Shown piece after piece: positions 9,922 to 64,000 of a stretch of 64,000 nucleotides of DNA. The stretch lies in IMG/VR virus record IMGVR_UViG_3300042482_000285; one strand, given 5' to 3'. Under the pieces are notes generated by a model. It worked only from the letters and a program-made list of their open reading frames with translations. It searched no databases and had not been told where the DNA came from. Origin of the DNA: a virus. The translations under genes were made by a program, and so were the position numbers. Each line of letters begins with the position of its first letter. Position 1 is the stretch's first letter.

Positions 9922-9922
9922 T

Positions 9923-12028: not shown

Positions 12029-12072
12029 ATAACCAACTTGGTTAGAATGGATAACGGGAAAGGTTAAAATAA

Positions 12073-12105: not shown

Positions 12106-12127
12106 GGGCAATTTTAATTATAAAAAG

Positions 12128-52300: not shown

Positions 52301-55300
52301 TCAGGTGGTTGGTGTAACGTTACATCAGGTTGTCAAGCGGGTGTTTTGAGTGGATGTGGTAATACAGCATCAGGATATAGAGCAGTTGCTGTTGGTGGCG
52401 GTTCAAATATATCTTCAAATAGTTGGTCAACAGTAGGTGGAGGTAGAAATAACACAGCTTCAGGTTGCATGTCCTTTATAGGTGGTGGCTGTGGAAACAC
52501 TGTTTCGGGTGGTTATGCTTCTTCTCTTTTAGGTGGATGTGGTAACACAGCATCGGGAACAAGGTCTACCGTAGGTGGTGGAATGTTGAATACAGTAACA
52601 GGAGCATCAGGAACAATAGCAGGTGGAGAATATAACTGTATTTGTAGTGCAGGCATATTTGGAATCATATCAGGTGGATATTGTAGCATAGTTTCAGGAT
52701 GTTCTGCATCAATATTAGGTGGTAGAGCTAATTTAGCATCAGGAGATTGTTCAACAGTGGGTGGCGGTCAAGCAAACTGTGCAACAGGTGCTTTTTCAGC
52801 AATAGTGGGAGGAGACCAACATGCTGCCACAGCTTCAAGAGCATTTATAGGTGGTGGTTATGACAATACCGTAAGTAACGGTTATGGAGCTATAACAGGA
52901 GGTTATCAAAACAATGCTTCTTACATGGCTTTTGTAGGTGGAGGTAGAGGAAGCACAGCATCAGGAAACTATTCAACAGTAGCAGGGGGACAGTCTAACA
53001 CTGCTTCAGGAACTGTATCAACAGTTGGTGGAGGTGCAGGGCATACAGCTTCAGGATATCGTTCTGTTATCAGTGGTGGACACGCAAATTATGCTACAGC
53101 ATCTTGTTCCGCAGTAGGAGGTGGATATAACAACATTTCTTCAGGAGGATTTGCTTTTGTTGGTGCAGGTACAGGTAACACCTCTTCAAGTTCAGCAACA
53201 TTTATTGGAGGTGGTTATTATAATGTTGCAAACTGTGGATATGCTTCAGTGGCAGGAGGACAACAGAACACAGCAAGTGGAAGATATTCATTTGCAGGTG
53301 GTGGTCTTTGCAACCTTTCCAATGGTGATATGTCAACTATTGGTGGAGGTTCATGGAATAAAATAATTAGTTCAATAGCTACTTGTTGTGCAACAGGAGC
53401 TACTATTGCAGGCGGTGTAGGTAACAATACATGTGGTGGAACATTTAATAACTATGGTGTTCCAACTGTAAACCCAACAGTTGTATCAGCAGGTATTTAT
53501 TCTACAATAGGAGGTGGTTTTCAGAATAGGGCAGTGGGAGAATACTCTGTAGTTTCAGGCGGTATTTTTAATGTTGCAAACACAATATATTCATTTGTTG
53601 GTGGTGGGTATGGACACCTTGCTTCAGGTCAAGCTGCAATGATAGGTGGAGGTCGCTCCCATACAACATCTAATACTTATGCTACAGTACTAAGTGGATA
53701 TAACAGCACTGCAACGGGTTACGCTTCAACAATTTCAGGAGGTTATCAAAACATTGCTTCGGGTACTGATGCTGCAATATCAGGTGGTCGTGCTAATACA
53801 GCAACAGCCTTAGCAGCTTATGTTGGAGGAGGAAGATATAATGATGCAACAAATAATGTAGCCACTATAGCAGGTGGATATGATAACACAGCTTCAGGTG
53901 GATACTCAACTGTAGGTGGTGGATTAGGTAACTGTGCTACAGGATGTATATCTGCTGTAGTGGGTGGTAGACAAAGTTGTGCTACAGGTTGTTATGCTTT
54001 TGCAGGAGGTGGTTACAATAGTAAAGCTACAGCTTTTGCAACTACAACAAGCGGTGGATATGGAAACTTAGCTTCAGGAAATTCATCAACAGTATCAGGT
54101 GGTAGAATAAATACAGCTTCTAATGGTTATGCTACAGTTGCGGGAGGTTATCAAAACACTGCGAGTGGTGCTTATGCTTTTGTAGGTGCAGGTAGTATAA
54201 GTTCAGCAGGTGGTGACTGTGCTGTAATGGTAGGTGGTAAAGCAAATGCCGCAAGTGGTAATATATCATTTCTTGGTGGAGGATGTACAAACACCGCATC
54301 GGGACAAAATTCAGTTGTTGTTGGGGGATGTAATAACACATCAAGTGGTAATACATCAAGTATTTTAGGAGGTAGAGGTAACTCTACGTCTACTGCTTGT
54401 AATAGTATAAGCGGTGGATATGGTAATATAATTACAGCTTCAACAGGTCGTTCTTCAATTGTTGGTGGTAGTTCTAACTGTATAGGAGGTTCAGGTCTTG
54501 CATTTATTGGAGGAGGTAATACAAACACTATATCAGGTAGTTATTATGGAACTATAGCAGGTGGTGTAGGAAACACTACCTCAGCTTGGGCAAACTTTAT
54601 TGGAGCAGGTACATTCAATGTCGTTTCAGGAGGTTGTGGTGCAGTTGCAGGTGGTAATGGGAACACTGCTTCGGGGGGAGCATCTGCTATAGGTGGTGGT
54701 AGAGGTAATACGGCTTCAGGCACTTATTCTAAAGTCGGAGGAGGATGTTCAAATACTGCATCAGCTTCAAGGTCAACAGTAGTAGGTGGATTCCAAAATA
54801 CTGCATCATTTTATGCTTCATTTGTTGGAGGAGGTAGTTTTAACACAGCAAGTTGCTATTGTTCTTTTGTTGGTGCAGGTAATGGTAACGTAGCTTCAGG
54901 TAATGGTTCTGCGGTTGTAGGAGGTCAATCAAATTCTGCATCCAATCTAAATTCATTTGTAGGTGGAGGTAGAGCAAACTGCGCTTATGGAATTTGTTCA
55001 ACAGTTGGAGGAGGTTATAATAATAGGGCAAACCTATACAGCACTGCTGCGGGAGGTCTAAGTAATAATGCTACAGGTACTACTTCAACCGTAAGTGGTG
55101 GTTATAGTAACACAGCAAGTGGTACATACGATGCTTCTATTGGAGGTGGTGCATCGAATAGTGCAAGTGGAAATAAGTCAAGAGTAGGAGGTGGACAATC
55201 TAACGGTGCTACGGGTACAGCTTCTTTTGTAGGAGGTGGTTGTGCTAACACTGCGTCAGGCTATCGTTCAACAGTAAGTGGTGGTTTATCTAATGTAGCT

Positions 55301-56482
55301 TCAGGAGATAGAGCAACGGTAGGTGGTGGTGGTGCAAACTGTGCTACAAATACAGGAGATACTATTTCAGGTGGTATTAATAGTAGAGCAGGTGGTGCTT
55401 ATGGTACAGTTTCAGGTGGTTACAATAATAGTGCTACAGGATATATGGCTGTTATTGGTGGTGGTTGTATAAACTCATCAACATCAAACGCATCAACAGT
55501 TAGTGGAGGTCAGCAAAATTCAGCATCAGGTGCATGTTCCACTGTGGGTGGTGGTATTACAAATAGTGCATCTGGTACAAAATCTACCATTGCAGGTGGT
55601 CAAACAAACACTGCATCAGGATATAACTCATTTATCGGAGGTGGATATGCTAACCAAGCAACACAAACATATAGCTTTGTTGGTGGTGGAGACGAAAATA
55701 TTATTTCATCAGGTGCAAGAGGTGTAATTAGTGGTGGTCAAGGTAATAGAATATGTGGTACATCATCAGGATGTAATACAATTGGTGGTGGATATTTAAA
55801 CTGTATCACTACAGGATTTGTAAATACAATTGGTGGTGGTTATAACAATAGAATAGTAGGTGGCTCTTACCACGTCATAGCAGGTGGTTATAGTAACCAA
55901 ATATCATCAAATACAGAATCAGGTATATTAACAGGTGGTGCTAATACAGTATCAGGTACATACTCAGTAGTAGTTGGTGGTCAAGCAAACACAGCATCAG
56001 GGATATGCTCAGGGGTGTTAGGAGGTAGAAGTAACACAGCTTCAGGAAATCATTCTTCAGTACTTGGTGGATGCGGTAATGTAATATCAGGAAATTGTTC
56101 AGGTGGTGGAGGTGTAGGAATATCAGGAACTTGCTCATCTACTTTTTATTGGAATAACTTTTGTGCAACGTCTTGTATGTGGGCAGTTGCATATTTTGAA
56201 TCTTCTGACGAGCGTTTGAAGGATATTCATTGCACTGTAGGATCTTGTGACTCCATCAATCCTATCTATTTCAAATGGAAAGAAGGTGACGCAAGTGTTA
56301 TTAACATAGGATATTCTGCACAGAACGTGAAGGAAGTGCTTCCTCATACAATCAGAACAGATGAGAAGGGCTACTATAACGTAGACTACCATCAGGTGCA
56401 CATCTATAAAATAACTAAACTTGAGGAACGCATCACACAGCTTGAGGATATAATCAAAAAACTATCATCATGTCTTGGGTAG
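46310..56482 (+). CDS. Giant tail fibre (3390 aa): N-terminal adapter, two collagen-like GXY tracts, Hep_Hag/YadA-like beta-roll repeat array, C-terminal S74 intramolecular chaperone domain
   Basis: Two tracts of (G-T/S-S/T/A)n triplets. About 160 copies of a 14-15-aa repeat S-x-V-G-G-G-x-x-N-T-A-S-G-x-x. C-terminal ...YFESSDERLKDIH... matches the S-D-x-x-x-K Ser-Lys dyad of endosialidase-type intramolecular chaperone (peptidase S74) domains. Confidence 0.8.
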   Translation: MNVLPNILQYGSSGTSGTSGESQTSDYVNNFPVYIDPVVPVEPPPSELSSSQPSFLSKLYGRTLVQETPIITSEPLIYVAAPDPVDPADNQSFMSKLFANANNNTAFTSSPVVCAANPCPITLNATCVFYEGPNLIYTKINTNDNLQTALEKIEAAIADELAGSSGTSGTSGTSGTSGTAGTSGTTGTSGTSGTSATAGTSGTSGSSGTSGTTGTSGTSGTDGSGGTSGTSGTSGTSGTSGTAGTSGTSGTTGTSGTSGTDGSGGTSGTSGTSGTSGTAGTSGTSGTTGTSGTSGTTGTSGTSGTHGTSGTTGTSGTSGTTGTSGTSGTTGTSGTSGTSATSGTSGTSGTDGTGGTSGTSGTSATSGTSGTTGTSGSSGTSGTSGTSGTDGSGGTSGTSGTSGTDGTSATSGTSGSSGTSGTSATSGTTGTSGTSGTDGTGGTSGTSGTSATSGSSGSSGTDGTGGTSGTSGTSATSGTSGTTGTSGSSGTTGTSGTSGTAGTSGTDGSAGTSGTSATSGTSGTSATSGTSGTSGTTGTSGSSGLSGDRFATTSSTTYTLGGVGSSGTITVGTGLAYTVGQSIIVAYDANNHVEAEVTSYNPATGVLSFTVFRLTGSGTYSSWQVNLDGATGGDGSSGSSGTSGTSATAGTSGTTGTSGSSGTSATSGSSGTTGTSGTDGTSGTSGTTGTSGSSGSSGSSGSSGSSGTSATSGTSGTSATDGTGGTSGTSGSSGSSGSAGTSGTAGSPGTSGTSGSSGTAGSSGTTGTSGTSGTTGTSGTSGVSGTSGTSGTNGTGGTSGTSGSSGTSGSSGTAGSSGTSGTSGTAGTNGSPGTSGTSGSSGSSGTSGTTGTSGTSGSSGSSGINVGSSAVIVLGAGACSSVRCGVSNSATGGYTGNLAGTSNTMSGCCYNVIVGGFNSTASGTYYAFIGNGSTNTASGSVSFIGTGGSNIASADYAFIGNGAGNTASGSFATIVGGTVNTASGTCSFIGGGFCNTASGTHDVVVGGLYNRATSSAQSFIGGGCYNYISTGVWNTITGGICNCITAGGYGFIGGGYRNCLINSATESAVVVGGTNTVSASYSGILSGALNSVSGARSSVSGGCQVTASGAFSHVGGGCLNTASGTTAGVLSGRGNAAGGNWSSVSGGYNNSAGGNESHVGGGNANSASGCMSLVGAGFGNTASGLRSGIGSGQCNTASGNYSFVGGGVSNLACGVYSTVTGGIVNEARSTGAVAGGYANTASNRYSAAHGGLSNVAQGISSVIAGGQSNYVCNSTSGCLAYGAVVTGGVGNNTTGGTWSLASCAFTVAPTPCNVGQYSFIGGGFQNRAGGNYNSVVGGFCNSTGTSGYTAIAGGFCNTASANYNFIGAGQNNCIISTGGMSILVGGYLNTVSSTYSFLGGGRSNLVSGACSVIVGGKSNTASGYISAIGGGQSNITSGSFTFVGGGNGVCATSCLATAVGGANNRASGARAFVGGGSANTSSGYISVVVGGDSNTSNDRYGVISGGAVNTASNTYATVSGGLSNTASASRGTVAGGTGNTASGYAAFVVGQNNTASGNRATISGGRNNTSSSTYSTVSGGYRNRATQYATTVSGGYGNYSCVTQGTVGGGICNNLCSSVSASCGAGATIAGGVGNNTTGGTFNPATGQFSVAPTAICNAGQFSFIGGGFSNVATGAYSVLSGGQCNTASGYRSFVGSGYQTVALGCHSVAVGGLFNCASNCAVVVGGCVNTASGAYSFIGGGRTHTASGTWSTISGGYGNLASGQISVVAGGYGSSATGCRAATLGGQSNGASGAWATAGGGISNVASGESSVVSGGDSNTASGIRAAIGGGLANTATQCVSTVAGGDYNDATANRAFIGGGYNNTASSSYTTVSGGYQNTASATRATVAGGQFNFATGSQSIVGGGICNCATTSNSHIGGGLRNCVVGSMEASTISGGYGNIVCGSGCEATIGGGRGNRTVGWWTFVGGGVGNVASAESSISGGALNTASGYRSSVSGGWCNVTSGCQAGVLSGCGNTASGYRAVAVGGGSNISSNSWSTVGGGRNNTASGCMSFIGGGCGNTVSGGYASSLLGGCGNTASGTRSTVGGGMLNTVTGASGTIAGGEYNCICSAGIFGIISGGYCSIVSGCSASILGGRANLASGDCSTVGGGQANCATGAFSAIVGGDQHAATASRAFIGGGYDNTVSNGYGAITGGYQNNASYMAFVGGGRGSTASGNYSTVAGGQSNTASGTVSTVGGGAGHTASGYRSVISGGHANYATASCSAVGGGYNNISSGGFAFVGAGTGNTSSSSATFIGGGYYNVANCGYASVAGGQQNTASGRYSFAGGGLCNLSNGDMSTIGGGSWNKIISSIATCCATGATIAGGVGNNTCGGTFNNYGVPTVNPTVVSAGIYSTIGGGFQNRAVGEYSVVSGGIFNVANTIYSFVGGGYGHLASGQAAMIGGGRSHTTSNTYATVLSGYNSTATGYASTISGGYQNIASGTDAAISGGRANTATALAAYVGGGRYNDATNNVATIAGGYDNTASGGYSTVGGGLGNCATGCISAVVGGRQSCATGCYAFAGGGYNSKATAFATTTSGGYGNLASGNSSTVSGGRINTASNGYATVAGGYQNTASGAYAFVGAGSISSAGGDCAVMVGGKANAASGNISFLGGGCTNTASGQNSVVVGGCNNTSSGNTSSILGGRGNSTSTACNSISGGYGNIITASTGRSSIVGGSSNCIGGSGLAFIGGGNTNTISGSYYGTIAGGVGNTTSAWANFIGAGTFNVVSGGCGAVAGGNGNTASGGASAIGGGRGNTASGTYSKVGGGCSNTASASRSTVVGGFQNTASFYASFVGGGSFNTASCYCSFVGAGNGNVASGNGSAVVGGQSNSASNLNSFVGGGRANCAYGICSTVGGGYNNRANLYSTAAGGLSNNATGTTSTVSGGYSNTASGTYDASIGGGASNSASGNKSRVGGGQSNGATGTASFVGGGCANTASGYRSTVSGGLSNVASGDRATVGGGGANCATNTGDTISGGINSRAGGAYGTVSGGYNNSATGYMAVIGGGCINSSTSNASTVSGGQQNSASGACSTVGGGITNSASGTKSTIAGGQTNTASGYNSFIGGGYANQATQTYSFVGGGDENIISSGARGVISGGQGNRICGTSSGCNTIGGGYLNCITTGFVNTIGGGYNNRIVGGSYHVIAGGYSNQISSNTESGILTGGANTVSGTYSVVVGGQANTASGICSGVLGGRSNTASGNHSSVLGGCGNVISGNCSGGGGVGISGTCSSTFYWNNFCATSCMWAVAYFESSDERLKDIHCTVGSCDSINPIYFKWKEGDASVINIGYSAQNVKEVLPHTIRTDEKGYYNVDYHQVHIYKITKLEERITQLEDIIKKLSSCLG
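46796..47950 (+). repeat. Collagen-like Gly-X-Y tract 1 (~128 triplets), about 9-nt periodic DNA
   Basis: Uninterrupted G-[TSA]-[STAG] triplets (GTSGTSGTAGTSGTTG...). Nucleotide repeat unit ggtac(a/t)tc(t/a)gg(a/t)ac. Confidence 0.85.
48201..48900 (+). repeat. Collagen-like Gly-X-Y tract 2 (~78 triplets)
   Basis: GDGSSGSSGTSGTSATAGTSG...SSGSSG, separated from tract 1 by a roughly 85-aa globular insert. Confidence 0.85.
48901..56110 (+). repeat. Ser-rich 14-15-aa beta-roll (Hep_Hag/YadA-head-like) repeat array, about 2400 aa
   Basis: Periodic GG(G)xxNTASGxxSxV units, many containing Cys (GGGFCNTASG, GGICNCITAGG); no stop for 7.2 kb. Confidence 0.7.
56201..56482 (+). other. C-terminal intramolecular chaperone / auto-proteolysis domain (peptidase S74-like), predicted to be cleaved off
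   Basis: SSDERLKDI at nt 56201-56227. Hydrophobic/charged alternation and a terminal coiled coil (ITKLEERITQLEDIIKKL), as in K1F endosialidase, T5 pb1 and phi29 gp12 C-termini. Confidence 0.6.
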
Positions 56483-57246
56483 GAATAGCAAATAACCAAA
56501 CTGTATCGTTTAACAATCTGCAGGATGCTGTGACAAATGGTTATTTTGTTGCTCTTGCAGCTATTCCTGCAAGCCAAGAACAAATCACCAAAACAGATGC
56601 TTCCACATATGCAAATATTGATACCGCATATGGTCCATATGCAGCTAAAGCAAGCAACCAGCTTGTTGTAAAAAGCAACCTCAGACCAATAAGTTATGCC
56701 TACACCATCTACTACGAGGAAGCTTGTTACTATGATGGATTTTATATTGAGGGAGGTGCTGCAAGTGGTGACATAGCGTGTGGTAACACTCTCACTATAA
56801 CACTATACAGTCCTGTTTCATCATTTGCAAACGGGATGAAACTATTCTATGATTCAGCATGTAGCAATCCTTGGTATGGAGATACAGGAGGATGTGGTCA
56901 GTATTATAAAGTGATTATTGCTGGATCTTCATACTCGTTCACCTATCCAAACTCAGGCTCAACTGTTCAGAATTTAACACCTTGCGCTCTCCCATGTGAA
57001 TGTTATGTTCTTTACAACGATGACAATATTGATATTTCAATATCTTTCTACGAGTGTGGTGGAAGCACAACAACTCCTGAATGTTTAACTTGTGCTGCGG
57101 CTTCTCAAATATATATATGTGTACAGGGAGGTCAAGGTAATAACTACTTCGTTAGCTATGGTACAAACTGTGCAGGTGGTCCTGTTCCTGCTTTTACACT
57201 TGTAGCTTTAGGAACAAACTGTACAACAGGCGGTGATTGTATCTAA
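56470..57246 (+). CDS. Hypothetical fibre-associated protein (258 aa), Cys-rich C-terminus
   Basis: ATG embedded in the last 13 nt of the fibre gene (translational coupling); contains CECYVLYND...CLTCAAAS. Confidence 0.5.
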   Translation: MSWVGIANNQTVSFNNLQDAVTNGYFVALAAIPASQEQITKTDASTYANIDTAYGPYAAKASNQLVVKSNLRPISYAYTIYYEEACYYDGFYIEGGAASGDIACGNTLTITLYSPVSSFANGMKLFYDSACSNPWYGDTGGCGQYYKVIIAGSSYSFTYPNSGSTVQNLTPCALPCECYVLYNDDNIDISISFYECGGSTTTPECLTCAAASQIYICVQGGQGNNYFVSYGTNCAGGPVPAFTLVALGTNCTTGGDCI

Positions 57247-57292
57247 ATAATTCAAAACTTTTTAATAACTTTGTAAAATAAAACAATAAACA

Positions 57293-57667
57293 ATGGCAAA
57301 TTCTTGGAACACTCTTCACATTTTCGGTTTTGGAACTGTGCAAGCAATCTCTGACACACAGAACGTACAGGCTCCTATATCAGCTTTTCAGGCTGAAGTG
57401 GATGCTGTAGTGAATGATGTATGGAACAACAAACCTGCAGGATATACAGGTCCTAAAACTTTCCATGCTATCAACAACTTTGATGGTCTTTTCTCTGACT
57501 GGCTTCCTAATGAACCTAACGTAGAATCATTCAGAGTTCAGGCAGCTGACTTAGATCAATCTTTGTTAGATGCATTGGCAGATGGCGTACTTGCTTATGT
57601 TCCTCCTACCACAACGACCACTACCACTAAGAATATCACTACCACTAGCACAACAACGGCTAAATAA
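57293..57667 (+). CDS. Small protein (124 aa) with a C-terminal poly-Thr tail
   Basis: Ends PPTTTTTTTKNITTTSTTTAK; candidate TAACTTTG box 20 nt upstream (57266-57273). Confidence 0.45.
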   Translation: MANSWNTLHIFGFGTVQAISDTQNVQAPISAFQAEVDAVVNDVWNNKPAGYTGPKTFHAINNFDGLFSDWLPNEPNVESFRVQAADLDQSLLDALADGVLAYVPPTTTTTTTKNITTTSTTTAK

Positions 57668-57674
57668 ACATTAA

Positions 57675-57706
57675 TTTGGAAGTGTAATCTGTAGGTTTTA
57701 CCTTTG
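57675..57706 (+). promoter_or_regulatory. Candidate Bacteroidota-type promoter of the glycosylation operon (TTTG -N20- TACCTTTG)
   Basis: TTTG at 57675-57678 and TACCTTTG at 57699-57706, a perfect match to TTTG-N19-21-TAnnTTTG. It lies 15 nt upstream of the ATG at 57721 and is embedded in an imperfect hairpin GTAGGTTTTA/TAAACCCTAC (57691-57718). Confidence 0.4.
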
Positions 57707-57720
57707 TATAAACCCTACAT

Positions 57721-58602
57721 ATGAACATTATATTCCAAATCAATGGTGGTATAGGAAAGTGCATACTGGCAACATCTGTATGTGAAGCTATCAAGGCGCA
57801 ACATCCTGATAGTCAATTAATTGTAATGAGCGGTTACCCAGAGGTGTTTTTAAACAACCCCTTTGTGGACCGCTCATTTGCATTTGGTCAAGCCCAATAC
57901 TTCTATCAAGACTTTATTGAGAACAAGGAGTTCAAGGTGCTTGCACACGATCCCTACCTAGAAACAGCACATCTATTGCAGAATGAACATTTGTCCAAAA
58001 CCTGGGCAGAGATGTTTAACATCAAGGCTCCTGAGGATGTCACACCAAAGATATACATCACAGAAAGAGAGAAAACATTCTTCTCTAGTAAGTTTAACTC
58101 TGATGCCCCCATCCTCCTTATACAAACTAATGGTGGTGCGCAGGGACAAGAGCTTAGATATTCATGGGCTAGGGATATTCCTACAAACATTGTACAGGCT
58201 GTTATAGAAGAGTTTAAGAACACACATAACATTGTACACATAAGGCGTGAGGATCAAATAGGATATGAATTTACCACTCCTGTTACAGATAACTTCAGAG
58301 CGCTAGCTGTTCTTGTATCTCTCAGTGACAAACGTTTGCTCATGGACAGCTTTGGTCAGCACACAGCTGCTGCTCTAAACAAACCTTCTACAGTGCTTTG
58401 GGTAGCTAACACACCTGTGGTGTTTGGATATGATGTACATGATAACATTCTAGCCAACCCATTTACCAAAAGACCTGAGCTTAAACATTCTTATTTTCAG
58501 AAGTTTGACATCTCTGGAAACCTATTGGAGTTTCCTTACAACAATGAGTCTGAGATGTTTGACGTTGATAAGGTGATTGCATCTATTAAAAACCAAAAAT
58601 AA
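57721..58602 (+). CDS. GT9-family (LPS heptosyltransferase-like) glycosyltransferase
   Basis: N-terminus IIFQINGGIGKCILATSVCEAIKAQHPDSQLIVMS resembles the GT9 opening (ILVIrlsslGDvilttP.l.alk..yP.a.i..l). C-terminal MDSFGQHTAAALNKPSTVLW resembles the GT9 GnDSGpmHLAaAlg.P.V.lfG motif. Confidence 0.6.
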   Translation: MNIIFQINGGIGKCILATSVCEAIKAQHPDSQLIVMSGYPEVFLNNPFVDRSFAFGQAQYFYQDFIENKEFKVLAHDPYLETAHLLQNEHLSKTWAEMFNIKAPEDVTPKIYITEREKTFFSSKFNSDAPILLIQTNGGAQGQELRYSWARDIPTNIVQAVIEEFKNTHNIVHIRREDQIGYEFTTPVTDNFRALAVLVSLSDKRLLMDSFGQHTAAALNKPSTVLWVANTPVVFGYDVHDNILANPFTKRPELKHSYFQKFDISGNLLEFPYNNESEMFDVDKVIASIKNQK

Positions 58603-58603
58603 T

Positions 58604-59422
58604 ATGGAGAAGATATTCTATCAGAGCTCACTTCCAAGAGCTGGGTCTACGTTATTGCAGAACATATTAGCACAGAACCCAGACGTATATGCTACACCTA
58701 CAAGTGGTGTGCTTGAGCTTGTGTTTGCAGCCAGGGCTAATTACACAGACTCTCCTGAGTTTCAAGCACAAGATCCAGAGGTAATGAAAACAGCTTTTCA
58801 AGCTTTCTGTAAACATGGCATGGACGCTTATTACAATGCTATTACAGATAAGAAGTATGTTGTTGATAAATCTCGTGGATGGGGTATACACTATGACTTC
58901 CTTAACTTTGTTCAACCTGATCCAAAGATCATATGCATGGTGAGAGACCTCAGAGATGTATTTGCTTCTATGGAAAACAACTATAGAAAGCATCCTGATA
59001 AGGCTAATGCTATTCTCAACTGGGCACAGATGACTGGAACAACAGTTCCTAAACGTATAGACATCTGGGCACAATCTCAACCTATTGGTCTTGCTATCGA
59101 GAGGTTGGGTGAGCTCTTTAGACTAGGATATGCAGACAAAATACTCTTTGTTAAGTTTGAAGACCTATGTCTCTATCCTGAGACAGAGATGACAAGGATA
59201 TATCAATACCTTGGCATCCCATATTTCAAGCACGACTTTGACAACATTGAGCAAGTGACTAAGGAAGATGATGAAGTGTATGGTCAGTTTGGTGACCACG
59301 TGATTAGAAAGAAACTTGAGCCTGTACAGTCTAGAGCTAAGCAGCTCCTTGGTAAGGATGTAACAGATTGGATTTACACAAACTACAAATGGTTCTTTGA
59401 TCAATTCAGATATAGCAAATGA
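58604..59422 (+). CDS. PAPS-dependent sulfotransferase
   Basis: 5'-PSB motif LPRAGSTLLQNIL (P-K/R-x-G-S/T-T). 3'-PB motif MVRDLRDVFASM (R-D/N-P/L-R-D...S). The ATG at 58604 directly follows the upstream stop, so the track start at 58577 was rejected. Confidence 0.7.
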   Translation: MEKIFYQSSLPRAGSTLLQNILAQNPDVYATPTSGVLELVFAARANYTDSPEFQAQDPEVMKTAFQAFCKHGMDAYYNAITDKKYVVDKSRGWGIHYDFLNFVQPDPKIICMVRDLRDVFASMENNYRKHPDKANAILNWAQMTGTTVPKRIDIWAQSQPIGLAIERLGELFRLGYADKILFVKFEDLCLYPETEMTRIYQYLGIPYFKHDFDNIEQVTKEDDEVYGQFGDHVIRKKLEPVQSRAKQLLGKDVTDWIYTNYKWFFDQFRYSK

Positions 59423-59847
59423 TTATAGTATTATTCGGACAGCCACACAGTGGTAAGACAACATTAGCAAACCAGTTTGCAGGTCATGTTAACATTGATG
59501 GAGACCAACTTAGAAAGATTTTTGAAAACAAAGACTACTCTAGGGAAGGAAGAATCAAGAACCTAAATAGGGCTAGTGACATTGCTCACTATCTCAACAG
59601 TGTAGGTAAGAGTGTAACCCTATCTCTAGTCTATCCTTATAAAGAAGCTAGAGACTACCTGAACAGTTTAACACCTAATGTAAGATGGGTATATTTACAC
59701 TATGATGGTGAGAGAGGAAGAGAAGGATTCCATGTAGGAGATTTTGATAAACCTGGAGATGATGAACAGGTTATGCAACTTAACACCTCTGCTACGTCTG
59801 TAAAAGAATGTTATACCACAATATACAATTGGGCATATGGTGAATAA
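59419..59847 (+). CDS. cysC: Adenylylsulfate (APS) kinase-like P-loop kinase
   Basis: P-loop LFGQPHSGKTTLA followed by NIDGDQLRKIF...REGRIKNLNRASDIAHYLNSVGKSVTLSLVYPYKEAR. This parallels the CysC pattern LDGDNVRHGL...DRKENIRRVGEVAKL..AG.VVL.AFISPhR.eR. Overlaps the upstream stop (ATGA). Confidence 0.65.
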   Translation: MIIVLFGQPHSGKTTLANQFAGHVNIDGDQLRKIFENKDYSREGRIKNLNRASDIAHYLNSVGKSVTLSLVYPYKEARDYLNSLTPNVRWVYLHYDGERGREGFHVGDFDKPGDDEQVMQLNTSATSVKECYTTIYNWAYGE

Positions 59848-60202
59848 CGTTCATGAGTGTCCTGAGTGTAAGATAGCCAAGGGTTGGGGACATGAGCTTA
59901 TTATTCATAACTCTGAAAAGTATTGTGGTAAGCTACTAGTATTCAAGGCTGGATGTAAGTTCTCTATGCATTATCACCTACTCAAACAGGAGACATGGTA
60001 TGTAAACAAAGGAACATTCATCTACCGATGGATAGATACTAATCAGGGGACAGAGCTTTCCACTCGTTTGGCTGTTGGAGATGTTGTTACACAATACCCA
60101 GGACAACCACATCAGCTTGAGGCTCTAAAGGATGGGGAGATATTTGAGGTGAGCACACAACACTTTGACTCAGACAGCTATAGAATATGGAAGGGAGATT
60201 AA
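59837..60202 (+). CDS. Cupin-fold small protein (121 aa); candidate sugar-phosphate isomerase or epimerase
   Basis: Two-motif cupin signature: G-x5-H-x-H (WGHELIIH...MHYH) and G...Q.P..H.LE. 11-nt overlap with the upstream gene. Confidence 0.45.
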   Translation: MVNNVHECPECKIAKGWGHELIIHNSEKYCGKLLVFKAGCKFSMHYHLLKQETWYVNKGTFIYRWIDTNQGTELSTRLAVGDVVTQYPGQPHQLEALKDGEIFEVSTQHFDSDSYRIWKGD

Positions 60203-60489
60203 CAATATATGTAGACATTGATGGCACAATATGCCACACAGATGGTAATAAATACAGTGAATGTGTTCCCATCCATGAGAACATAGCTAAGATAAATAAA
60301 CTGTATGATGAGGGACATGAGATAGTATATTACACAGCTAGAGGTCAAAGGTCAGATGTTGATTATACAAAGCTGACAACCAAACAGCTGTACGATTGGA
60401 ACTGTAAATACTCAAAGGTGGTGATGAATCATAAACCTGCCTACGACCTAATGATATGTGATAAAACAAAAAGAATAGAAGAGATATGA
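60187..60489 (+). CDS. Minimal HAD-like phosphatase (100 aa); candidate heptose-1,7-bisphosphate phosphatase (GmhB role)
   Basis: HAD motif I IYVDIDGTI (DxDGT). Later YYTARGQ (motif II Thr), HKPAYDLMICDKT (Lys and Asp of motifs III/IV). Unusually short. Overlaps the upstream gene by 16 nt. Confidence 0.4.
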   Translation: MEGRLTIYVDIDGTICHTDGNKYSECVPIHENIAKINKLYDEGHEIVYYTARGQRSDVDYTKLTTKQLYDWNCKYSKVVMNHKPAYDLMICDKTKRIEEI

Positions 60490-60887
60490 GAATATGGGTG
60501 AATGGAGCTTTTGACATCCTGCATATAGGACACATTAAGCTTCTTAAACATGCAGCAGCTATGGGCTACCTTAGAGTGGGGATAGATACAGACAAGAGAA
60601 TAAAAGAGCTAAAGGGTCCCAACAGACCCTTTAATTGTTTTAGCACAAGAAAGGAAATGTTAGAATCTCTACGCTTTGTAGACGAGGTGGTGGGGTTTGG
60701 TGGTGAGCAGGAGCTCATAGATGAGATTAAACTTTATCAACCAGATGTGATGGTGATTGGATCTGACTACAGGAATAAGAGGATTGTTGGATCGGAATTT
60801 ATAAACAAAATTGTTTACTTTGACAGGGTGGAGAATATGTCCACCACATCAATACTAGAATATGAAAAAGATAGTGGTAATAGGTGA
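60486..60887 (+). CDS. hldC: D-glycero-beta-D-manno-heptose 1-phosphate adenylyltransferase (HldE domain II / HldC-like cytidylyltransferase fold)
   Basis: WVNGAFDILHIGHIKLLKHAAAMG...LRVGIDTDKRIKELKGPNRP...EVVGFGGEQELIDEIKLYQPDVMVIGSDY matches the RfaE-II consensus (vftNGcFDilHaGHv.yL..Ar.lGd.LiVgvNsD.Sv.rlKG..RPv...VD.Vv.F.e.TP..Li....PdvlVKGgDY). ATGA overlap with the upstream gene. Confidence 0.8.
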   Translation: MRIWVNGAFDILHIGHIKLLKHAAAMGYLRVGIDTDKRIKELKGPNRPFNCFSTRKEMLESLRFVDEVVGFGGEQELIDEIKLYQPDVMVIGSDYRNKRIVGSEFINKIVYFDRVENMSTTSILEYEKDSGNR

Positions 60888-61599
60888 GCTCTGCCATGAT
60901 GTGTTTGTATATGGGGAATGCAAAAGGCTGAGCCCAGAAGCACCCGTTCCTGTATTCAATCCTATACATAGTGTAGAGAATCTAGGAATGGCTGGGAATG
61001 TTGTGGCTAACATCAACACTATTGATTCTAACATAGGAATATCTTTCTATCACAGCCTAGAGAAGATAACCAAGACTAGGTATGTAGATAAGAAAACCAA
61101 CCATCTATTCCTTAGGGTGGATGATGAACCACGTGTGAACAGAATACATATATCAGAGACACTTATTTCTGAGATAAAGGAAGCAGATGCTGTAGTGGTT
61201 AGTGATTACAACAAAGGGTTTCTGTCTGAAGATGACCTGTATACAATATCAAAACTTGCAAGATTTGCAATAGTTGACACTAAGAAGAGGATGAATCCCA
61301 TCCACCTATCACATTTCAACTTCATCAAAATAAATGAACATGAGGCTAATCAGGGAGTTGCTGATGAACTTAAAGAAAAGACTATTGTAACACTTGGTCC
61401 AAAAGGAGCAATGTATATGGATACATTATACCCATCTCCACACCCTAAGGAAACTATAGATGTGTCAGGAGCTGGTGATACATTCCTAGCAGCATTTGTC
61501 ACTAAGTATTTGGAGACAGAAGATGTTAATATTTCTATTACCTTTGCAAATAAGATGAGCGCTATTGTTGTATCAAAAAGAGGCGTAGCTACACCATGA
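60862..61599 (+). CDS. hldA: PfkB-family sugar kinase, HldE domain I-like (D-glycero-beta-D-manno-heptose 7-phosphate kinase)
   Basis: The N-terminus KKIVVIGELCHDVFVYGECKRLSPEAPVPVF parallels HldE (ilVvGDvmLDrY..G...RiSPEAPVPVv). PfkB anion-hole/catalytic motif DVSGAGDTFLAAF. 26-nt overlap with hldC. Confidence 0.7.
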   Translation: MKKIVVIGELCHDVFVYGECKRLSPEAPVPVFNPIHSVENLGMAGNVVANINTIDSNIGISFYHSLEKITKTRYVDKKTNHLFLRVDDEPRVNRIHISETLISEIKEADAVVVSDYNKGFLSEDDLYTISKLARFAIVDTKKRMNPIHLSHFNFIKINEHEANQGVADELKEKTIVTLGPKGAMYMDTLYPSPHPKETIDVSGAGDTFLAAFVTKYLETEDVNISITFANKMSAIVVSKRGVATP

Positions 61600-62456
61600 A
61601 AGTATTGATTACAGGAACTAAAGGATTTATAGGAGGCAATCTCTGGAAGCATTTTGATGACCCGTTGGTGATTAATGAAAACTTTTTTCTTGAACCAGAA
61701 TGGCCTGGGCTTTTACATAAAGCATTGAACAACCATTCACCAGATGTTGTGTTCCACGTAGGCGCTTGTTCCAACACTCTAGAGACAGATGTTAATTACA
61801 TCATGAATCTAAACTTCCAATGTACAAAGCTACTGATGGATTGGTGCAAACGTGGTGGTAAACCTATGATATATTCATCCTCTGCAGCATCCTATGGAAC
61901 AAATGGACAATACCCATCCAACCTATATGGCTGGAGTAAGTATGTAGCTGAGCAATATGTAATTAGCAACGGTGGTGTAGCACTTAGATACTTCAATGTA
62001 TATGGACCAGGAGAAGAGCACAAGGGTAACATGGCTTCTATGGTCTACCAGATGTTTAAAGCAGGAGAAGCTAAGCTATTTCCTGGTGAGCCTCAACGTG
62101 ATTTCATATATGTGGATGATGTTGTACTTGCCAACCTACATGCATTGGCACACTATGATGTGCTATCAGGAAAGAAATATGATGTAGGACTTGGAGAAGC
62201 ACACACCTTTGAGTATATTGCAAATGTATTAGAGATTCCATACACATACCATGACTCATCAGCTATACCAGAAGGATATCAATTCTACACATGTAGCAAT
62301 CCTAGAAACTGGATGCCTGGTTGGGCACCAGAATATTCAATAAAAACAACACTACAATTATGCAAAACGTATTGGCAAAAGCTGCTCACAAATCAGGACA
62401 ATGGGCAATGTTCATCGGAAGATGGCAACCGTGGCACGAAGGACACAGATGGTTAA
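61596..62456 (+). CDS. hldD: ADP-L-glycero-D-manno-heptose 6-epimerase
   Basis: Rossmann [22 protein letters not shown]...[21 protein letters not shown] (YxxxK) and [22 protein letters not shown]...[16 protein letters not shown] align near-identically in pattern with E. coli HldD (HEGACSST...[43 protein letters not shown]...LFEGSENFKRDFVYVGDV). Confidence 0.85.
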   Translation: [286 protein letters not shown]

Positions 62457-62746
62457 TTGACCAAGCATTTAACGAGGATAAGAAAGTGCTCCTCTGTATA
62501 AGAGATGTACCTGTGGATGAGAAGAATCCTTGGTCTGCTATTGAGGTGATGATGAACCTCACTAACGAATTAATAGACTTAATTGAAGAAGGAAGACTTA
62601 AAATTATTATTATACCTGATATTGAATCTATCAATATTGGTAGGGGTATTGGTTATGATGTTATAGAACATGTACCGCCTCAAGATATACATGATATATC
62701 TGCTACAAAGATTCGTGAACAAATGAAAGCTGAGGGTAAGTTATGA
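62360..62746 (+). CDS. NadM/NMNAT-like (HxGH) nucleotidyltransferase, about 128 aa
   Basis: AMFIGRWQPWHEGHRWLIDQAF...KVLLCI matches the archaeal-type NMNAT / cytidylyltransferase signature GRFQPFHKGH followed by EIIIGIGSA. The track ORF begins at 62321 inside hldD. Internal ATGs at 62360 or 62408 are more plausible starts. Confidence 0.45.
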   Translation: MQNVLAKAAHKSGQWAMFIGRWQPWHEGHRWLIDQAFNEDKKVLLCIRDVPVDEKNPWSAIEVMMNLTNELIDLIEEGRLKIIIIPDIESINIGRGIGYDVIEHVPPQDIHDISATKIREQMKAEGKL

Positions 62747-62967
62747 TGGTAGAAAGGAAACGACATATAGCTAAGACTATTAGTTATCGTCTCATCAGTA
62801 CACTCATTGGTGTGCTCACTATGTTTATTGTAACAGGATCTATGAAAGCAGGAGCTGCATTTGGTGTAGCTGAGCTGTTGTGGAAGCCTGTACAATACTA
62901 CATCCACGAACGTATTTGGTATAAGTGGATTAGATATGGCTTAAAAGGGCAAAAACAACCTGACTAG
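62743..62967 (+). CDS. DUF2061-like small membrane protein (74 aa)
   Basis: RKRHIAKTISYRLISTLIGVLTMFIVTGSMKAGAAFGVAELLWKPVQYYIHERIWYKW fits the DUF2061 pattern as I recall it (K.ISWR..GTL.TF.I...vTGS...a.......e...K.vlYYlHER.W). This family is often adjacent to or fused with APS kinase. The 3' end overlaps the convergent minus-strand gene by 38 nt. Confidence 0.4.
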   Translation: MMVERKRHIAKTISYRLISTLIGVLTMFIVTGSMKAGAAFGVAELLWKPVQYYIHERIWYKWIRYGLKGQKQPD

Positions 62968-63982
62968 CATCTATCTTCTGGTGGCATTCAAACTGTCTGT
63001 CTGTTCCCTTGTGTTCAGGACACCAGTCCCAATCTCCTGGATCAAACTTATATTCAGCTTTGTTCCAACATCCGTGGCATACATTCTTGTTGTCAATCCT
63101 AATGCATTGAAACTCATGGTCTGCTTCTGTGAAGTTGGAGATCATCACCACCTTCTTGTCAAGAGCCCAGGCTAACCAGCTAAGTCCACTAGACAGTCCT
63201 ATGAATATCTTACTGTGATGGATAATGTTCATGGTGTTCTCTATGGATGTATCCTCTATCTGCTCACAGTTGTCAAAAGGATTCTTCTCCTTAGATACAT
63301 TAATCACCTTGTATCCTTTCTCATGCAGGAAGTTTATCACTAGCTGCCATCCCTCTTTGGTCCAGAACTTACAACCAGTTGTAGAATTGGTGGCTATTGT
63401 AACATATTTACCATATAAATTGTTACCAGGAGTGAATGCAATTCTTGGTTTAAGTTCTTGAAACTCAAGACCTAAGATGTTGGTAGCTGCCTCTTGGAGC
63501 TTTACAGTGTTACACAAAGCTGGTTCCTTGTCAGGATTGTAAAACCAACCTATGTTATACATACCAAATATACCATCAGCCTTCTGACCAGGTTCAATAA
63601 ACTCAATCTCTGGGTAGACATCTTTGAACAAGAAGTTCTTAAACGTACTCACTATTACATGGCAGTTGTGCTTCTTCTTAAACTCAAGAACATATGGCAT
63701 CCATGCTATACTATCTCCTAGAGACTTGCTGTCAAATGCTATGTACACACGCTTACCTGTGTAGTCTAGGGTGTATTCGTAATAGGGCTCATCATCTTTC
63801 CATATCTTAATGGTCCACTTGGTAAACCACCTCCTGTTGAGCTTAATCCAATTCTGCACACCTATTGTGTTCCTATAGTGACACACACCTTCCTCATCAT
63901 GATATTCCACCCTGAACTTGCTCTTAGACCTTCCCTTGATTTCAAGAAACGGTTCTAGAATAAAGTTGTGATCAATTGTCAC
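62930..63982 (-). CDS. TibC/AAH-like autotransporter-adhesin-type protein O-heptosyltransferase (BAHT family), probably N-terminally incomplete at the window edge
   Basis: SLGDSIAWMPYVLEFKKKHNCHV parallels TibC TLGDLLGWFPYAERFQSLHKCRL. IGLSSGLSWLAWALDKKVVMISNFTEADHEF parallels IGLPSGLSWLAWATRIPVVLISGFSLPNSEF. CHGCWNKAEYKFDPGDWDWCPEHKGTDRQFECHQ parallels the TibC iron-finger CYGCWDD...FLWCPRHKNTDRQFEC (TibC sequence recalled from memory). It is the only credible minus-strand gene. The first in-window codon is GTG and the frame stays open to nt 64000. Confidence 0.8.
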   Translation of the reverse strand: MTIDHNFILEPFLEIKGRSKSKFRVEYHDEEGVCHYRNTIGVQNWIKLNRRWFTKWTIKIWKDDEPYYEYTLDYTGKRVYIAFDSKSLGDSIAWMPYVLEFKKKHNCHVIVSTFKNFLFKDVYPEIEFIEPGQKADGIFGMYNIGWFYNPDKEPALCNTVKLQEAATNILGLEFQELKPRIAFTPGNNLYGKYVTIATNSTTGCKFWTKEGWQLVINFLHEKGYKVINVSKEKNPFDNCEQIEDTSIENTMNIIHHSKIFIGLSSGLSWLAWALDKKVVMISNFTEADHEFQCIRIDNKNVCHGCWNKAEYKFDPGDWDWCPEHKGTDRQFECHQKIDASQVVFALLSHI

Positions 63983-64000
63983 ATGTTCGTTAGATTGTAC

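Follow-up and report, generated by a model that had tools for sequence, protein, structure and literature searches.

A Thumb-less TibC-Type Module in a Four-Domain Phage Enzyme Encoded Beside a Collagen-Like Fibre Gene

Introduction

At the end of the window (the whole stretch of viral DNA analysed, 64,000 nucleotides in length), one gene runs against all the others and encodes a protein resembling the bacterial protein heptosyltransferases TibC and AAH, which raises the question of what such an enzyme would do in a phage. To our knowledge, enzymes of the BAHT family have been described only from Gram-negative pathogens, as virulence factors that are stand-alone proteins, form dodecamers and hyper-heptosylate autotransporter adhesins, and the members we know of modify beta-helical autotransporter passengers rather than collagen-like chains. 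TibC and AAH (PDB 4RAP, 4RB4) are composed of an N-terminal beta-barrel, an atypical GT-B domain and a Cys4 '1Fe-0S' iron finger (eLife 2014, PMC4358343). TibC protomers join hand in hand in the dodecamer through a beta-hairpin thumb, the tip of which is hydrophobic (F265/V266; PMC4358343).

Results

The Flagged ORF Is the C-Terminal Part of a 1139-aa Enzyme

The ORF seen in the window (62930..63982, minus strand) comprises 350 aa and ends with a stop codon at 62930-62932. The earlier note had given its in-window start as GTG in a frame still open to nt 64000, and both are seen in the translation, the residues VQSNEH preceding the GTG in the same frame. It had further supposed a protein of TibC size (~406 aa), of which the window would lack a few dozen residues. 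The last 10 kb of the window (54001..64000) are 100% identical to a metagenome contig, L001, and extension on this contig placed the N-terminus outside the window, as expected, but in a protein far larger than TibC. The ORF runs on for 2,349 nt beyond the window end (L001 12406..14754), adding 783 codons, and the full enzyme is a four-domain protein of 1139 aa encoded by one continuous ORF on L001. The window edge falls at the linker preceding the TibC-like module, and essentially the whole module lies inside the window, including the N-terminal beta-barrel, the GT-B catalytic domain and the Cys4 iron finger (Table 1).

All other minus-strand ORFs of at least 90 aa are nested within longer plus-strand ORFs, those of 433 aa and 296 aa being antisense frames of collagen-repeat DNA. 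The flagged ORF is thus the only credible minus-strand gene in the window, in line with its description as the sole such gene in 64 kb. It converges on the last plus-strand gene, encoding a small DUF2061 membrane protein, and the two share 38 nt at the 3' end of the enzyme gene, as the coordinates had indicated; the relatives L009 and L010 show the same convergent overlap, of 32 nt. Sugar-nucleotide genes and a repeat-rich fibre gene were found beside it by profile searches.

Table 1. Window coordinates of the enzyme module, its key residues and the neighbouring genes.
Feature	Position	Strand	Basis
Fibre protein, 3390 aa, candidate acceptor	46310..56482	+	Collagen E 1.1e-52; Peptidase_S74 E 0.0028 (weak)
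Conserved 293-aa protein, no assigned function	57721-58602	+	sulfation cassette
Sulfotransferase	58601-59422	+	sulfation cassette
APS-kinase-like protein	59419-59847	+	sulfation cassette
ADP-heptose cassette, five genes	59837..62456	+	profile best matches
Cupin	59837-60202	+	ADP-heptose cassette
Small HAD phosphatase	60187-60489	+	ADP-heptose cassette
Heptose-1-P adenylyltransferase-like	60486-60887	+	rfaE_dom_II E 3.5e-29
Heptose-7-P kinase-like	60862-61599	+	rfaE_dom_I E 7.2e-35
ADP-glyceromanno-heptose 6-epimerase-like	61596-62456	+	heptose_epim E 2.5e-49
Cytidylyltransferase-like gene	62321-62746	+	sulfation cassette
DUF2061 small membrane-protein gene, last plus-strand gene	62743..62967	+	Pfam PF09834, E 2.6e-14
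C-terminal TibC/AAH-like module (residues 784-1139 of 1139 aa)	62930..64000	-	TIGR04414, TibC 4RAP, L001 continuity, domain searches, AF2 model
Iron-finger segment	62984..63079	-	four Cys aligned to TibC
C1122 codon	62986-62984	-	aligns with TibC C370
C1110 codon	63022-63020	-	aligns with TibC C358
C1094 codon	63070-63068	-	aligns with TibC C342
C1091 codon	63079-63077	-	aligns with TibC C339
Codon GAT, Asp879 (TibC catalytic base Asp110, in SLGDSIAW)	63713..63715	-	alignment

The Module Belongs to the TibC/AAH Family

On sequence comparison, the similarity of the module to TibC/AAH is far beyond chance. The module scored 276.1 bits (E 4.2e-82) against positions 26-368 of the 374 positions of TIGR04414 (NCBIfam 'autotransporter strand-loop-strand O-heptosyltransferase'), for which the curated equivalog cut-off is 200 bits. 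Query residues 49-348 matched residues 61-379 of TibC (4RAP) with an E-value of 5.2e-49 as a single sequence, and the match reached 5.7e-65 with the family profile. These data confirm the membership that the earlier note had proposed from three signature blocks, all of which are present in the translation as SLGDSIAWMPY, IGLSSGLSWLAWA and CHGCW...WCPEHKGTDRQFEC. The models of LPS heptosyltransferases (WaaC/WaaF/WaaQ, GT9) gave only 13-29 bits against cut-offs of 135-569, below equivalog level, and the Pfam GT9 match (E 2.4e-8) denotes the generic domain only. A search of PHROGs assigned no family to the module.

The comparison of a predicted structure with TibC was carried out on the AF2 model of P0121, a protein 90% identical to the window protein (mean pLDDT 88). 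TibC chains were its top matches in the PDB, beta-barrel included (E 2.4e-30, TM 0.84, rmsd 2.3 Å). Over the TibC chains, the TM (target) ranged from 0.81 to 0.85 and the rmsd from 2.2 to 3.4 Å, with ~368 of 381 residues aligned. The protomer fold of the model consists of an N-terminal flattened beta-barrel and a GT-B-like catalytic domain.

Active-Site Residues Are Conserved and the Thumb Is Lost

In an alignment of 127 clade members (107 fusion proteins and 20 stand-alone homologues), the Asp at the position of TibC Asp110 was invariant (127/127), as were T226, K230 and W305 in TibC numbering (127/127); F368 was also conserved. The four Cys ligands of TibC, C339/C342/C358/C370, all align with Cys residues that are invariant in the 127 relatives, as anticipated, and the Cys4 iron finger of the module is a predicted metal site. 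The invariance of the Asp, T226, K230, W305 and the Cys4 set holds down to ~55% identity, which argues for purifying selection on the active site.

Three of the four residues in the sugar-binding set Thr226/Lys230/Arg286/Trp305 were kept. The window protein has Thr at the Arg286 position (Thr1039), as do 100 of the 107 fusion members; the remainder have Val or Ala. Arg286 is a sugar-binding residue of TibC, the mutation of which abolished or largely diminished activity (PMC4358343); its replacement by Thr suggests that the donor or its binding mode may differ in the phage enzyme. At the stereoselectivity position, Pro300 in TibC, the clade has Ser as AAH does (Ser1053 here), so that the enzyme is expected to accept ADP-L,D- as well as ADP-D,D-heptose.

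The beta-hairpin thumb is absent. A 10-residue deletion falls exactly at TibC ~259-268, where the tip residues F265/V266 lie, in the window protein and in 127/127 clade members, and no hairpin was found at 1015-1053 in the secondary structure of the P0121 model. Since the thumb is missing, a TibC-type dodecameric ring is probably not formed, and the 783-residue N-terminal extension likewise argues against a dodecamer. A dimer held together by the iron finger is conceivable. Superposition on the TibC dodecamer, which the earlier note had envisaged, is of limited use for a clade that has deleted the element building it.

A Four-Domain Fusion with a Conserved Inverted Orientation

The domains of the enzyme follow the order SAM-methyltransferase, GT-A-fold glycosyltransferase, GT4 glycosyltransferase and TibC-like module, and Pfam detected methyltransferase, GT1/GT4 and GT9 domains in the 1139-aa protein. 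The second domain gave no match in the PDB by sequence-profile search; its likeness to a GT-A fold, resembling GT6/GT8 enzymes, comes from fold comparison alone, with a moderate TM of ~0.5. It carries an invariant DxD motif (D266-x-D268). The fusion architecture recurs, at 56-90% identity, in over 100 cluster representatives with lengths of 1127-1167 aa. In one relative, the protein is split into genes for 761 aa and 371 aa exactly at the boundary of the TibC-like module, and some phages encode the module as a separate protein of 367-382 aa.

Relatives are encoded on at least 590 IMG/VR viral contigs, and only 6 MAG contigs with a relative were found among 185,579 species genomes. Megablast of the last 8 kb of the window against 50,697 phage records returned no match; the capsid protein matched only a protein of Leptolyngbya phage Lbo-JY46, at 25% identity, and no cultured close relative was found. 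Our literature search found no account of TibC-like enzymes in phages, though its coverage was incomplete and such a paper may exist. Enzymes of this kind are carried by hundreds of uncultured aquatic phages, beside genes for Ser/Thr-rich collagen-like fibres.

The enzyme gene is almost always the lone gene on its strand, and 93% of flanking long-ORF residues lay on the opposite strand across 80 viral loci. The earlier note had read this orientation as a sign of separate acquisition or of antisense interplay. Separate acquisition is unlikely, because inversion of the gene is conserved throughout the family; nor was there any sign of a recent event in the GC content, which is unremarkable (0.398, versus ~0.40 for the window). 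As to antisense interplay, a strong terminator-like hairpin on the bulk strand, just past the 5' end of the enzyme gene, was present in 3/3 loci in the first scan, and a stricter scan found it in 6/45 further loci on the bulk strand versus 2/45 on the enzyme strand. This difference was too weak to support a conserved antisense-termination design, and the interplay is still speculation.

The Fibre Gene and the Neighbouring Cassettes

The fibre protein contains ~155 Gly-Thr-Ser collagen-like triplets (aa 163-865), followed at aa ~1020-3290 by ~150 copies of a 15-residue repeat, GGxxNxASGxxSxV (lag-15 autocorrelation 0.33), and its C-terminus resembles an endosialidase-chaperone (S74) domain in a weak match. 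It holds 567 Ser and 451 Thr (17% and 13%), as compared with ~5-8% of each in the other giant proteins of 3870 aa and 1562 aa. The 15-residue repeats align with the UspA1 head (3PR7; E 1.7e-13), a trimeric-autotransporter structure that also repeats every 15 residues; no autotransporter was found among the neighbours, these repeats only resembling a trimeric-autotransporter head.

Sequence of at least 8 kb beyond the enzyme stop was available for 39 viral loci. A Ser/Thr-rich GXY tract (at least 10 triplets, convergent strand) was found downstream in 33 of them, as compared with 1 of 47 loci in the upstream control, and 35/39 had either such a tract or a fibre marker. The compared loci belong to related phages, so these counts are not independent events, and the synteny of the enzyme and fibre genes could partly reflect shared ancestry. 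We considered the 15-residue repeats as the main acceptor, following the logic of TibC. They occurred in only 6/39 loci and tracked the sulfation cassette (6/11 loci with the cassette versus 0/28 without; Fisher p 1.4e-4, loci not independent), and the collagen-like tract is thus the better candidate for a general acceptor.

No more than 2.5 kb separates the enzyme gene from the kinase-, adenylyltransferase- and epimerase-like genes. The models rfaE_dom_I, rfaE_dom_II and heptose_epim were the best match for each protein, yet below the NCBIfam equivalog cut-offs, and we presume that the ADP-heptose cassette furnishes the donor of the TibC-like module. The full five-gene cassette was present in 3/80 loci; being confined to the closest relatives, ADP-heptose genes are not a general requirement. 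No SIS-type GmhA (sedoheptulose-7-P isomerase) was found in the window or in L001 with an E. coli query sequence. What we term the sulfation cassette, present in 11/39 related loci, consists of the 293-aa protein, the sulfotransferase, the APS-kinase-like and cytidylyltransferase-like proteins and DUF2061. An N-terminal motif had suggested the 293-aa protein as a second GT9-like transferase, which found no support from Pfam, NCBIfam or hhalign against the enzyme family.

Comparison with Known Systems

The phage module shares with TibC/AAH the fold, Asp110, T226, K230, W305, F368 and the four Cys, has Ser at position 300 as AAH does, and is likewise encoded beside the gene of a very large, repeat-rich surface-fibre protein. 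TibC and AAH are stand-alone proteins of ~400 aa, whereas the phage module is the C-terminal part of a 1139-aa four-domain fusion, phage-encoded, without the thumb and with Thr for Arg286. The bacterial enzymes lie beside their autotransporter substrates (AIDA-I, TibA), whereas the phage neighbour is a collagen-like fibre without an autotransporter translocator domain. In the Burkholderia virulence locus, BimC, a stand-alone BAHT-family protein, is paired with the trimeric autotransporter BimA. The pairing of a TibC-family protein with a trimeric fibre-like surface protein is common to both systems, the phage 15-residue repeats resembling the UspA1 head; they differ in that the universal partner in the phage family is the collagen-like tract, with autotransporter-like repeats at only the 6 loci mentioned above.

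Mycobacteriophage glycosyltransferases decorate the phage's own structural proteins, capsid and tail-tube, in the cytoplasm before assembly. Those systems differ in using other glycosyltransferase families, and are not known to include a TibC-like module or a phage supply of ADP-heptose or PAPS. BclA of Bacillus and BclA3/SgtA of C. difficile offer a likeness to the proposed acceptor in working, not in family membership: they are Gly-X-Thr/Ser filaments bearing O-glycans on Thr/Ser, some with methylated sugars, and glycosyltransferases are encoded adjacent (PMC7157674, PMC8968730). Their enzymes are unrelated to the TibC family and involve no heptose, and the filaments are part of the spore surface, not of a virion.

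The cultured Microcystis phage Mel-JY01 encodes a 1226-aa multi-domain protein, WWT39291 (PP395634), with a C-terminal TibC-like domain of 40% identity and the same signature blocks. A tract of 149 collagen-like G-S/T-S triplets lies ~2.5 kb from its gene. It differs in the order and type of its N-terminal domains, and its gene is co-oriented with the neighbours. WWT39291 is annotated as 'methyltransferase FkbM', and its relationship to TibC is not recognised in the record.

Discussion

We consider it probable that this phage enzyme first attaches O-linked heptose to the virion fibre as a primer and afterwards elongates and methylates the resulting glycan. During infection, the enzyme would be expressed from a transcription unit of its own, opposite in strand to every other gene. 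The TibC-like module, with Asp879 as the catalytic base and a fold stabilised by the Cys4 metal site, would move heptose from ADP-heptose onto the giant fibre protein of the same phage, at Ser/Thr hydroxyls. The likeliest target would be the (Gly-Thr-Ser)n collagen-like tracts, with the trimeric-autotransporter-like repeats as possible further targets in this phage. ADP-heptose might be topped up by the adjacent phage kinase, phosphatase, adenylyltransferase and epimerase, and both the L,D and D,D forms may be tolerated, given the AAH-like Ser. The GT-A and GT4 modules would lengthen the glycan, the methyltransferase would cap it, and the separate sulfotransferase and APS kinase may add sulfate. 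All this would probably proceed without a TibC-type ring, given the missing thumb. We infer both acceptor and donor from gene neighbourhood only.

An alternative, which we regard as unlikely, is that the enzyme remodels the host surface, placing heptose glycans on the LPS core, O-antigen or host adhesins and thereby blocking superinfection or changing a receptor. GT9 consists mainly of LPS heptosyltransferases, to which the module has weak GT9/WaaC-type matches; the literature reads phage heptosyltransferases as LPS-modifying auxiliary genes, and multi-domain glycosyltransferase proteins occur in capsule synthesis too (8qoy among the fold-search matches). However, the module scores as an equivalog of the protein-specific TibC/AAH enzymes and far below the LPS cut-offs, and two TibC-specific features, the beta-barrel and the iron finger, are retained. 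Beside the enzyme we saw neither a membrane segment nor a lipid-carrier enzyme, and its conserved site, where the structural module ends, converges on the fibre gene.

It is likewise improbable that the fibre link is conserved gene order and that the enzyme acts on another phage target (capsid decoration, tail, or the 3870-aa or 1562-aa proteins) or on a free or virion-attached polysaccharide. The Ser/Thr contents of the other giant proteins are ordinary beside that of the fibre, and the pairing with G-S/T-S triplets recurs in Mel-JY01, so distant that only the TibC-like domain aligns. These observations weigh against the points that the loci are related, with synteny that may be inherited rather than functional, and that the virion glycosylation described for mycobacteriophages falls on capsid and tail proteins. 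That the module is no active heptosyltransferase at all, serving as a binding or scaffold domain or using another nucleotide sugar while the GT-A and GT4 domains carry out catalysis, would fit the clade-wide loss of Arg286 and the thumb and the absence of ADP-heptose genes from most relatives, but appears very unlikely in view of the invariant catalytic residues and Cys4, the separate 367-382 aa proteins and the ADP-heptose cassette adjoining the enzyme gene in this phage.

Beyond the priming and extension of a fibre glycan, we put forward tentatively, as a possibility that we would not yet call probable, a self-contained 'virion glyco-factory' in uncultured aquatic phages that form a large group of worldwide distribution. 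A thumb-less, non-dodecameric TibC-type O-heptosyltransferase, two more glycosyltransferases and a methyltransferase on one polypeptide, with phage supply of ADP-heptose and PAPS in some lineages, might convert collagen-like (Gly-Thr-Ser)n fibres to heptoglycan brushes that resemble mucins or proteoglycans and are possibly sulfated and methylated.

The BAHT catalytic module with its iron finger thus occurs in at least 590 viral contigs, thumb-less, fused to three tailoring domains and encoded beside genes for Ser/Thr-rich collagen-like fibres. The names 'autotransporter strand-loop-strand O-heptosyltransferase' (JGI, NCBI) and 'methyltransferase FkbM' (Mel-JY01) are misleading for the four-domain phage enzyme. 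The system is directly testable in E. coli, an ADP-heptose producer. If the function we favour is true, phage virion glycosylation would have a second case, distinct in mechanism, and nature would have provided a test of whether processive protein heptosylation depends on ring assembly. Fibre glycosylation could help to account for the very long, soluble and protease-resistant fibres of abundant freshwater and marine phages. If the 'virion glyco-factory' is real, the BAHT family would extend to a new acceptor class, collagen-like chains, and to a new setting, virus particles.

A TibC-Type Module in a Four-Domain Phage Enzyme

The minus-strand frame at the end of the window, which has a GTG start and remains open up to nt 64000, had been assigned in an earlier note to the TibC/AAH autotransporter heptosyltransferases on the basis of three signature blocks, all of which we found in the translation (SLGDSIAWMPY, IGLSSGLSWLAWA and CHGCW...WCPEHKGTDRQFEC). 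The NCBIfam model TIGR04414 (autotransporter strand-loop-strand O-heptosyltransferase) matched at E 4.2e-82, its 276.1 bits exceeding the cut-off of 200, and LPS heptosyltransferase models scored just 13-29 bits. A phmmer search against the PDB recovered TibC (4RAP, 4RB4) with E 5e-49, query residues 49-348 corresponding to TibC 61-379, and the match reached E 5.7e-65 with the family profile. The homology is thus borne out at the level of a module.

With the exact product of the neighboring epimerase gene as the query, we retrieved metagenome contigs including L001 (JGI 3300042890, 20.5 kb), in which 2406..12405 is 100% identical to window 54001..64000. In this contig the frame runs on, free of stops, so that the start does lie beyond the window edge as previously noted, but far more is missing than the few dozen residues that a total of 406 aa would imply: the window carries residues 784-1139 of the enzyme, and the gene extends another 2,349 nt past nt 64000. 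The window ends in the linker immediately ahead of the TibC-like β-barrel.

An AlphaFold2 model was made on P0121, a related protein 90% identical to the enzyme, using an alignment of 103 homologues. The mean pLDDT was 88.3 and the pTM 0.46; therefore, the domains are reliable and their arrangement relative to each other is not. The top PDB matches in Foldseek were TibC chains (E 2.4e-30, TM 0.84, rmsd 2.3 Å, ~368 columns), followed by the GT4 enzymes WbnH, BshA and PglA. The second domain, modelled separately (pLDDT 90.4, pTM 0.91), was closest to retaining GT-A transferases (E ~1e-7, TM ~0.5), namely GT6 blood-group transferases, α-1,3-GalT and GT8 glycogenin, and contains an invariant D266-x-D268 motif. 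The polypeptide joins a methyltransferase, a GT-A-fold transferase and a GT4 domain to the TibC-type module. In a related phage (L009, L010) the enzyme is encoded by two genes with a 4-nt overlap, split at the TibC-like module boundary into a 761-aa methyltransferase/GT-A/GT4 protein and a 371-aa TibC-like protein. The split shows that the module can function as a polypeptide of its own.

In TibC, the catalytic base is Asp110, the sugar-binding residues are Thr226, Lys230, Arg286 and Trp305, the iron-finger is formed by Cys339/342/358/370, and residues 1-97 form the N-terminal β-barrel; the dodecamer needs a β-hairpin thumb with the tip residues Phe265/Val266, and the stereoselectivity residue is Pro300, corresponding to Ser294 in AAH, which accepts both heptose epimers (PMC4358343). 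Our alignment placed the window protein, together with 107 members of the fusion family and 20 environmental homologues that stand alone, against TibC 61-379. D110, T226, K230, W305 and the four Cys showed no variation across both groups, in agreement with the iron-finger postulated earlier. Position 300 is Ser throughout, the position of Arg286 is occupied by Thr in 100 of the 107 fusion-family members, and the thumb is deleted (10 residues) in all aligned sequences. This deletion, together with others in loops and a reduced C-terminal tail, accounts for the smaller size of the module compared with TibC. Its identity as a TibC-type module is nearly certain, sequence, fold and active site all place it in the TibC/AAH family, and with its Cys4 site it appears catalytically intact. 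Unlike TibC/AAH, the phage enzyme lacks the thumb and hence the dodecamer contact, does not keep Arg286, and is neither stand-alone nor paired with an autotransporter.

Positions of the enzyme, its domains and neighboring features
Feature	Position	Strand	Remark
ORF in window	window 62930..63982	-	350 aa
Full-length ORF	L001 14754 to 11335	-	1139 codons
Methyltransf_11	enzyme 27-106		Pfam
Glycos_transf_1	enzyme 626-737		Pfam
GT9	enzyme 980-1078		Pfam
Methyltransferase	P0121 1-166		AlphaFold2
α/β domain	P0121 171-450		AlphaFold2
GT-B domain	P0121 453-781		AlphaFold2
β-barrel, then catalytic domain	P0121 789-874, 875-1139		AlphaFold2
Split enzyme genes	L009 7719-11116; L010 1-2915		761 + 371 aa
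Giant structural-region ORFs	window 15574-21189; 29529-41141; 41141-45829		1871; 3870; 1562 aa
Fiber	window 46310..56482	+	3390 aa; Pfam Collagen, E 1.1e-52
ORFs within fiber gene	window 46717-48018; 48082-48972	-	433; 296 aa
Sulfation cassette	window 57721-59847 + 62321-62967		293-aa protein, sulfotransferase, APS-kinase-like, cytidylyltransferase-like, DUF2061
Cupin	window 59837-60202		121 aa
Heptose-1-P adenylyltransferase			best NCBIfam match E 3.5e-29, below equivalog cut-off
Heptose-7-P kinase			best NCBIfam match E 7.2e-35, below equivalog cut-off
ADP-glyceromanno-heptose 6-epimerase			best NCBIfam match E 2.5e-49, below equivalog cut-off
DUF2061	window 62743..62967	+	PF09834, E 2.6e-14
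Hairpin	L001 14860-14895 (window-equivalent 66455-66490); L007 9909-9875; L009 7615-7586		11-16 bp stem + T-run
PAS protein	L001 16590-17705 (~4.2-5.3 kb past window end)		371 aa
Mel-JY01 regions	L091 1-2298; 4750-8430		
Mel-JY01 annotated CDS	L091 739-2298	-	translates to (VPE/LVP)n

Fiber, Sugar and Lysis Genes around the Enzyme

The window comes from an uncultured phage and represents its structural region, with a portal protein (PHROG, E 5.8e-98), a major head protein (E 8e-31) and tail proteins; the sole match of the capsid protein in a cultured phage is 25% identical. Three further giant proteins are encoded here, all of ordinary Ser/Thr content, and a Pfam scan of the 1562-aa one found no domain. 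The fiber contains 567 Ser and 451 Thr, ~155 Gly-Thr-Ser collagen-like triplets, a 15-residue repeat, GGxxNxASGxxSxV, present in ~150 copies (lag-15 autocorrelation 0.33), and a weak endosialidase-chaperone match at its C-terminus. The 15-residue units match the head of UspA1, a trimeric autotransporter adhesin (3PR7; E 1.7e-13, with high compositional bias), the period being 15 in both, and the fiber looks as if it were built from an extraordinarily long β-roll of the bacterial adhesin type.

The fiber gene is followed by genes for 258-, 124- and 293-aa proteins without assigned function, a sulfotransferase, an APS-kinase-like protein, a cupin, a small HAD phosphatase, the three proteins with heptose-enzyme matches, a second cytidylyltransferase-like protein and DUF2061, whose 3' end overlaps the enzyme gene by the 38 nt reported earlier. 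The enzyme gene is, as also claimed, the sole minus-strand gene, every other minus-strand ORF of at least 90 aa lying inside a longer plus-strand ORF. Two long ones within the fiber gene are antisense frames of GGT-ACT-TCT-type repeat DNA, not genes, and such frames would mislead an ORF caller.

The complete ADP-heptose cassette was found only in the three closest relatives. A SIS-type GmhA was looked for in the window and L001 and not found. The cupin occurs in just those three relatives that have the heptose kinase, phosphatase and adenylyltransferase; speculatively, it could serve as a non-orthologous sedoheptulose-7-P isomerase, just as there are cupin-type phosphomannose isomerases. Eleven of 39 related loci keep the sulfation cassette together as a conserved block. 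UspA1-like repeats occur in 6 of the 39, always alongside this cassette (6/11 with it versus 0/28 without), a co-occurrence suggesting that sulfation is tied to the 15-residue-repeat part of the fiber.

On the far side of the enzyme, past the window, L001 carries a gene for a Peptidase_M15 lysin, among other small genes, and the inverted enzyme gene therefore lies between the fiber/sugar genes and the lysis region. Just after the lysin gene is a protein with tandem PAS domains, a sensor type unusual for a phage. Directly past the 5' end of the enzyme gene, a strong terminator-like hairpin is located on the strand of the bulk of the genes, in 3/3 loci of a first scan and in 6/45 further loci under a stricter one. 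Given this position, plus-strand transcripts would traverse the entire enzyme gene antisense before terminating.

Distribution and Conserved Gene Order

The full-length architecture (1127-1167 aa) is present in more than 100 cluster representatives at 56-90% identity, the contigs reaching 110-155 kb, and at least 590 viral contigs in IMG/VR encode a relative. Among 185,579 species genomes, just six short MAG contigs carried the enzyme, which are probably mis-binned phage contigs; four were binned as Bacteroidota, a weak hint at the host phylum. The bacterial records (contigs L092-L097 and protein P0144) include Sediminibacterium, Chitinophaga, Saprospirales and Cytophagia bins.

In 80 viral loci, the strand opposite the enzyme holds 93% of flanking long-ORF residues (>80% in 70 loci), indicating that the enzyme gene has long been kept as the only inverted one. 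We then counted Ser/Thr-rich GXY tracts (at least 10 triplets, convergent strand) in the 39 loci that extend 8 kb or more beyond the enzyme's stop. A downstream tract was present in 33 loci, and a tract or fiber marker in 35, compared with 1/47 in the upstream control (downstream versus upstream tract, nominal Fisher p 1.5e-16, the loci being related). The position of the enzyme gene beside collagen-like fiber genes is conserved; a 58%-identical relative converges on fiber genes despite having no sugar-nucleotide genes.

The cultured Microcystis phage Mel-JY01 (L091, PP395634) encodes a 1226-aa protein, annotated as "methyltransferase FkbM", whose C-terminal domain is TibC-like (40% identity) and had gone unrecognised; it lies 2.5 kb from a 149-triplet G-S/T-S tract. 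Opposite an annotated minus-strand CDS, the plus strand encodes this type of long collagen-like protein, and the CDS is therefore probably annotated on the wrong strand.

Proposed Function

We infer the fiber as the acceptor from synteny among related genomes, and consider glycosylation of the fiber a reasonably probable function; that the donor is a heptose seems equally or slightly more probable. The TibC-like module would prime fiber Ser/Thr with heptose from ADP-heptose, the supply of which the phage genes may raise in this lineage; phage-encoded heptose genes are absent from most relatives. Ser1053 predicts that both heptose epimers would be accepted, in keeping with the adjoining epimerase. 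Lengthening of the glycan would fall to the other two transferases and capping to the methyltransferase; sulfate may be added by the sulfotransferase and APS kinase, which are encoded separately. With the thumb lost and further domains fused at the N-terminus, the enzyme is predicted to be non-dodecameric, and the Thr in place of Arg286 may imply another donor or a different way of binding it.

Our literature search found no description of phage TibC-like enzymes, and databases automatically label the fusion proteins as autotransporter heptosyltransferases. The proposed system would functionally resemble phage virion glycosylation and glycosylated collagen-like BclA-type filaments (PMC7157674, PMC8968730). 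The TibC-type module had been correctly recognised; the architecture and the biological setting are new.
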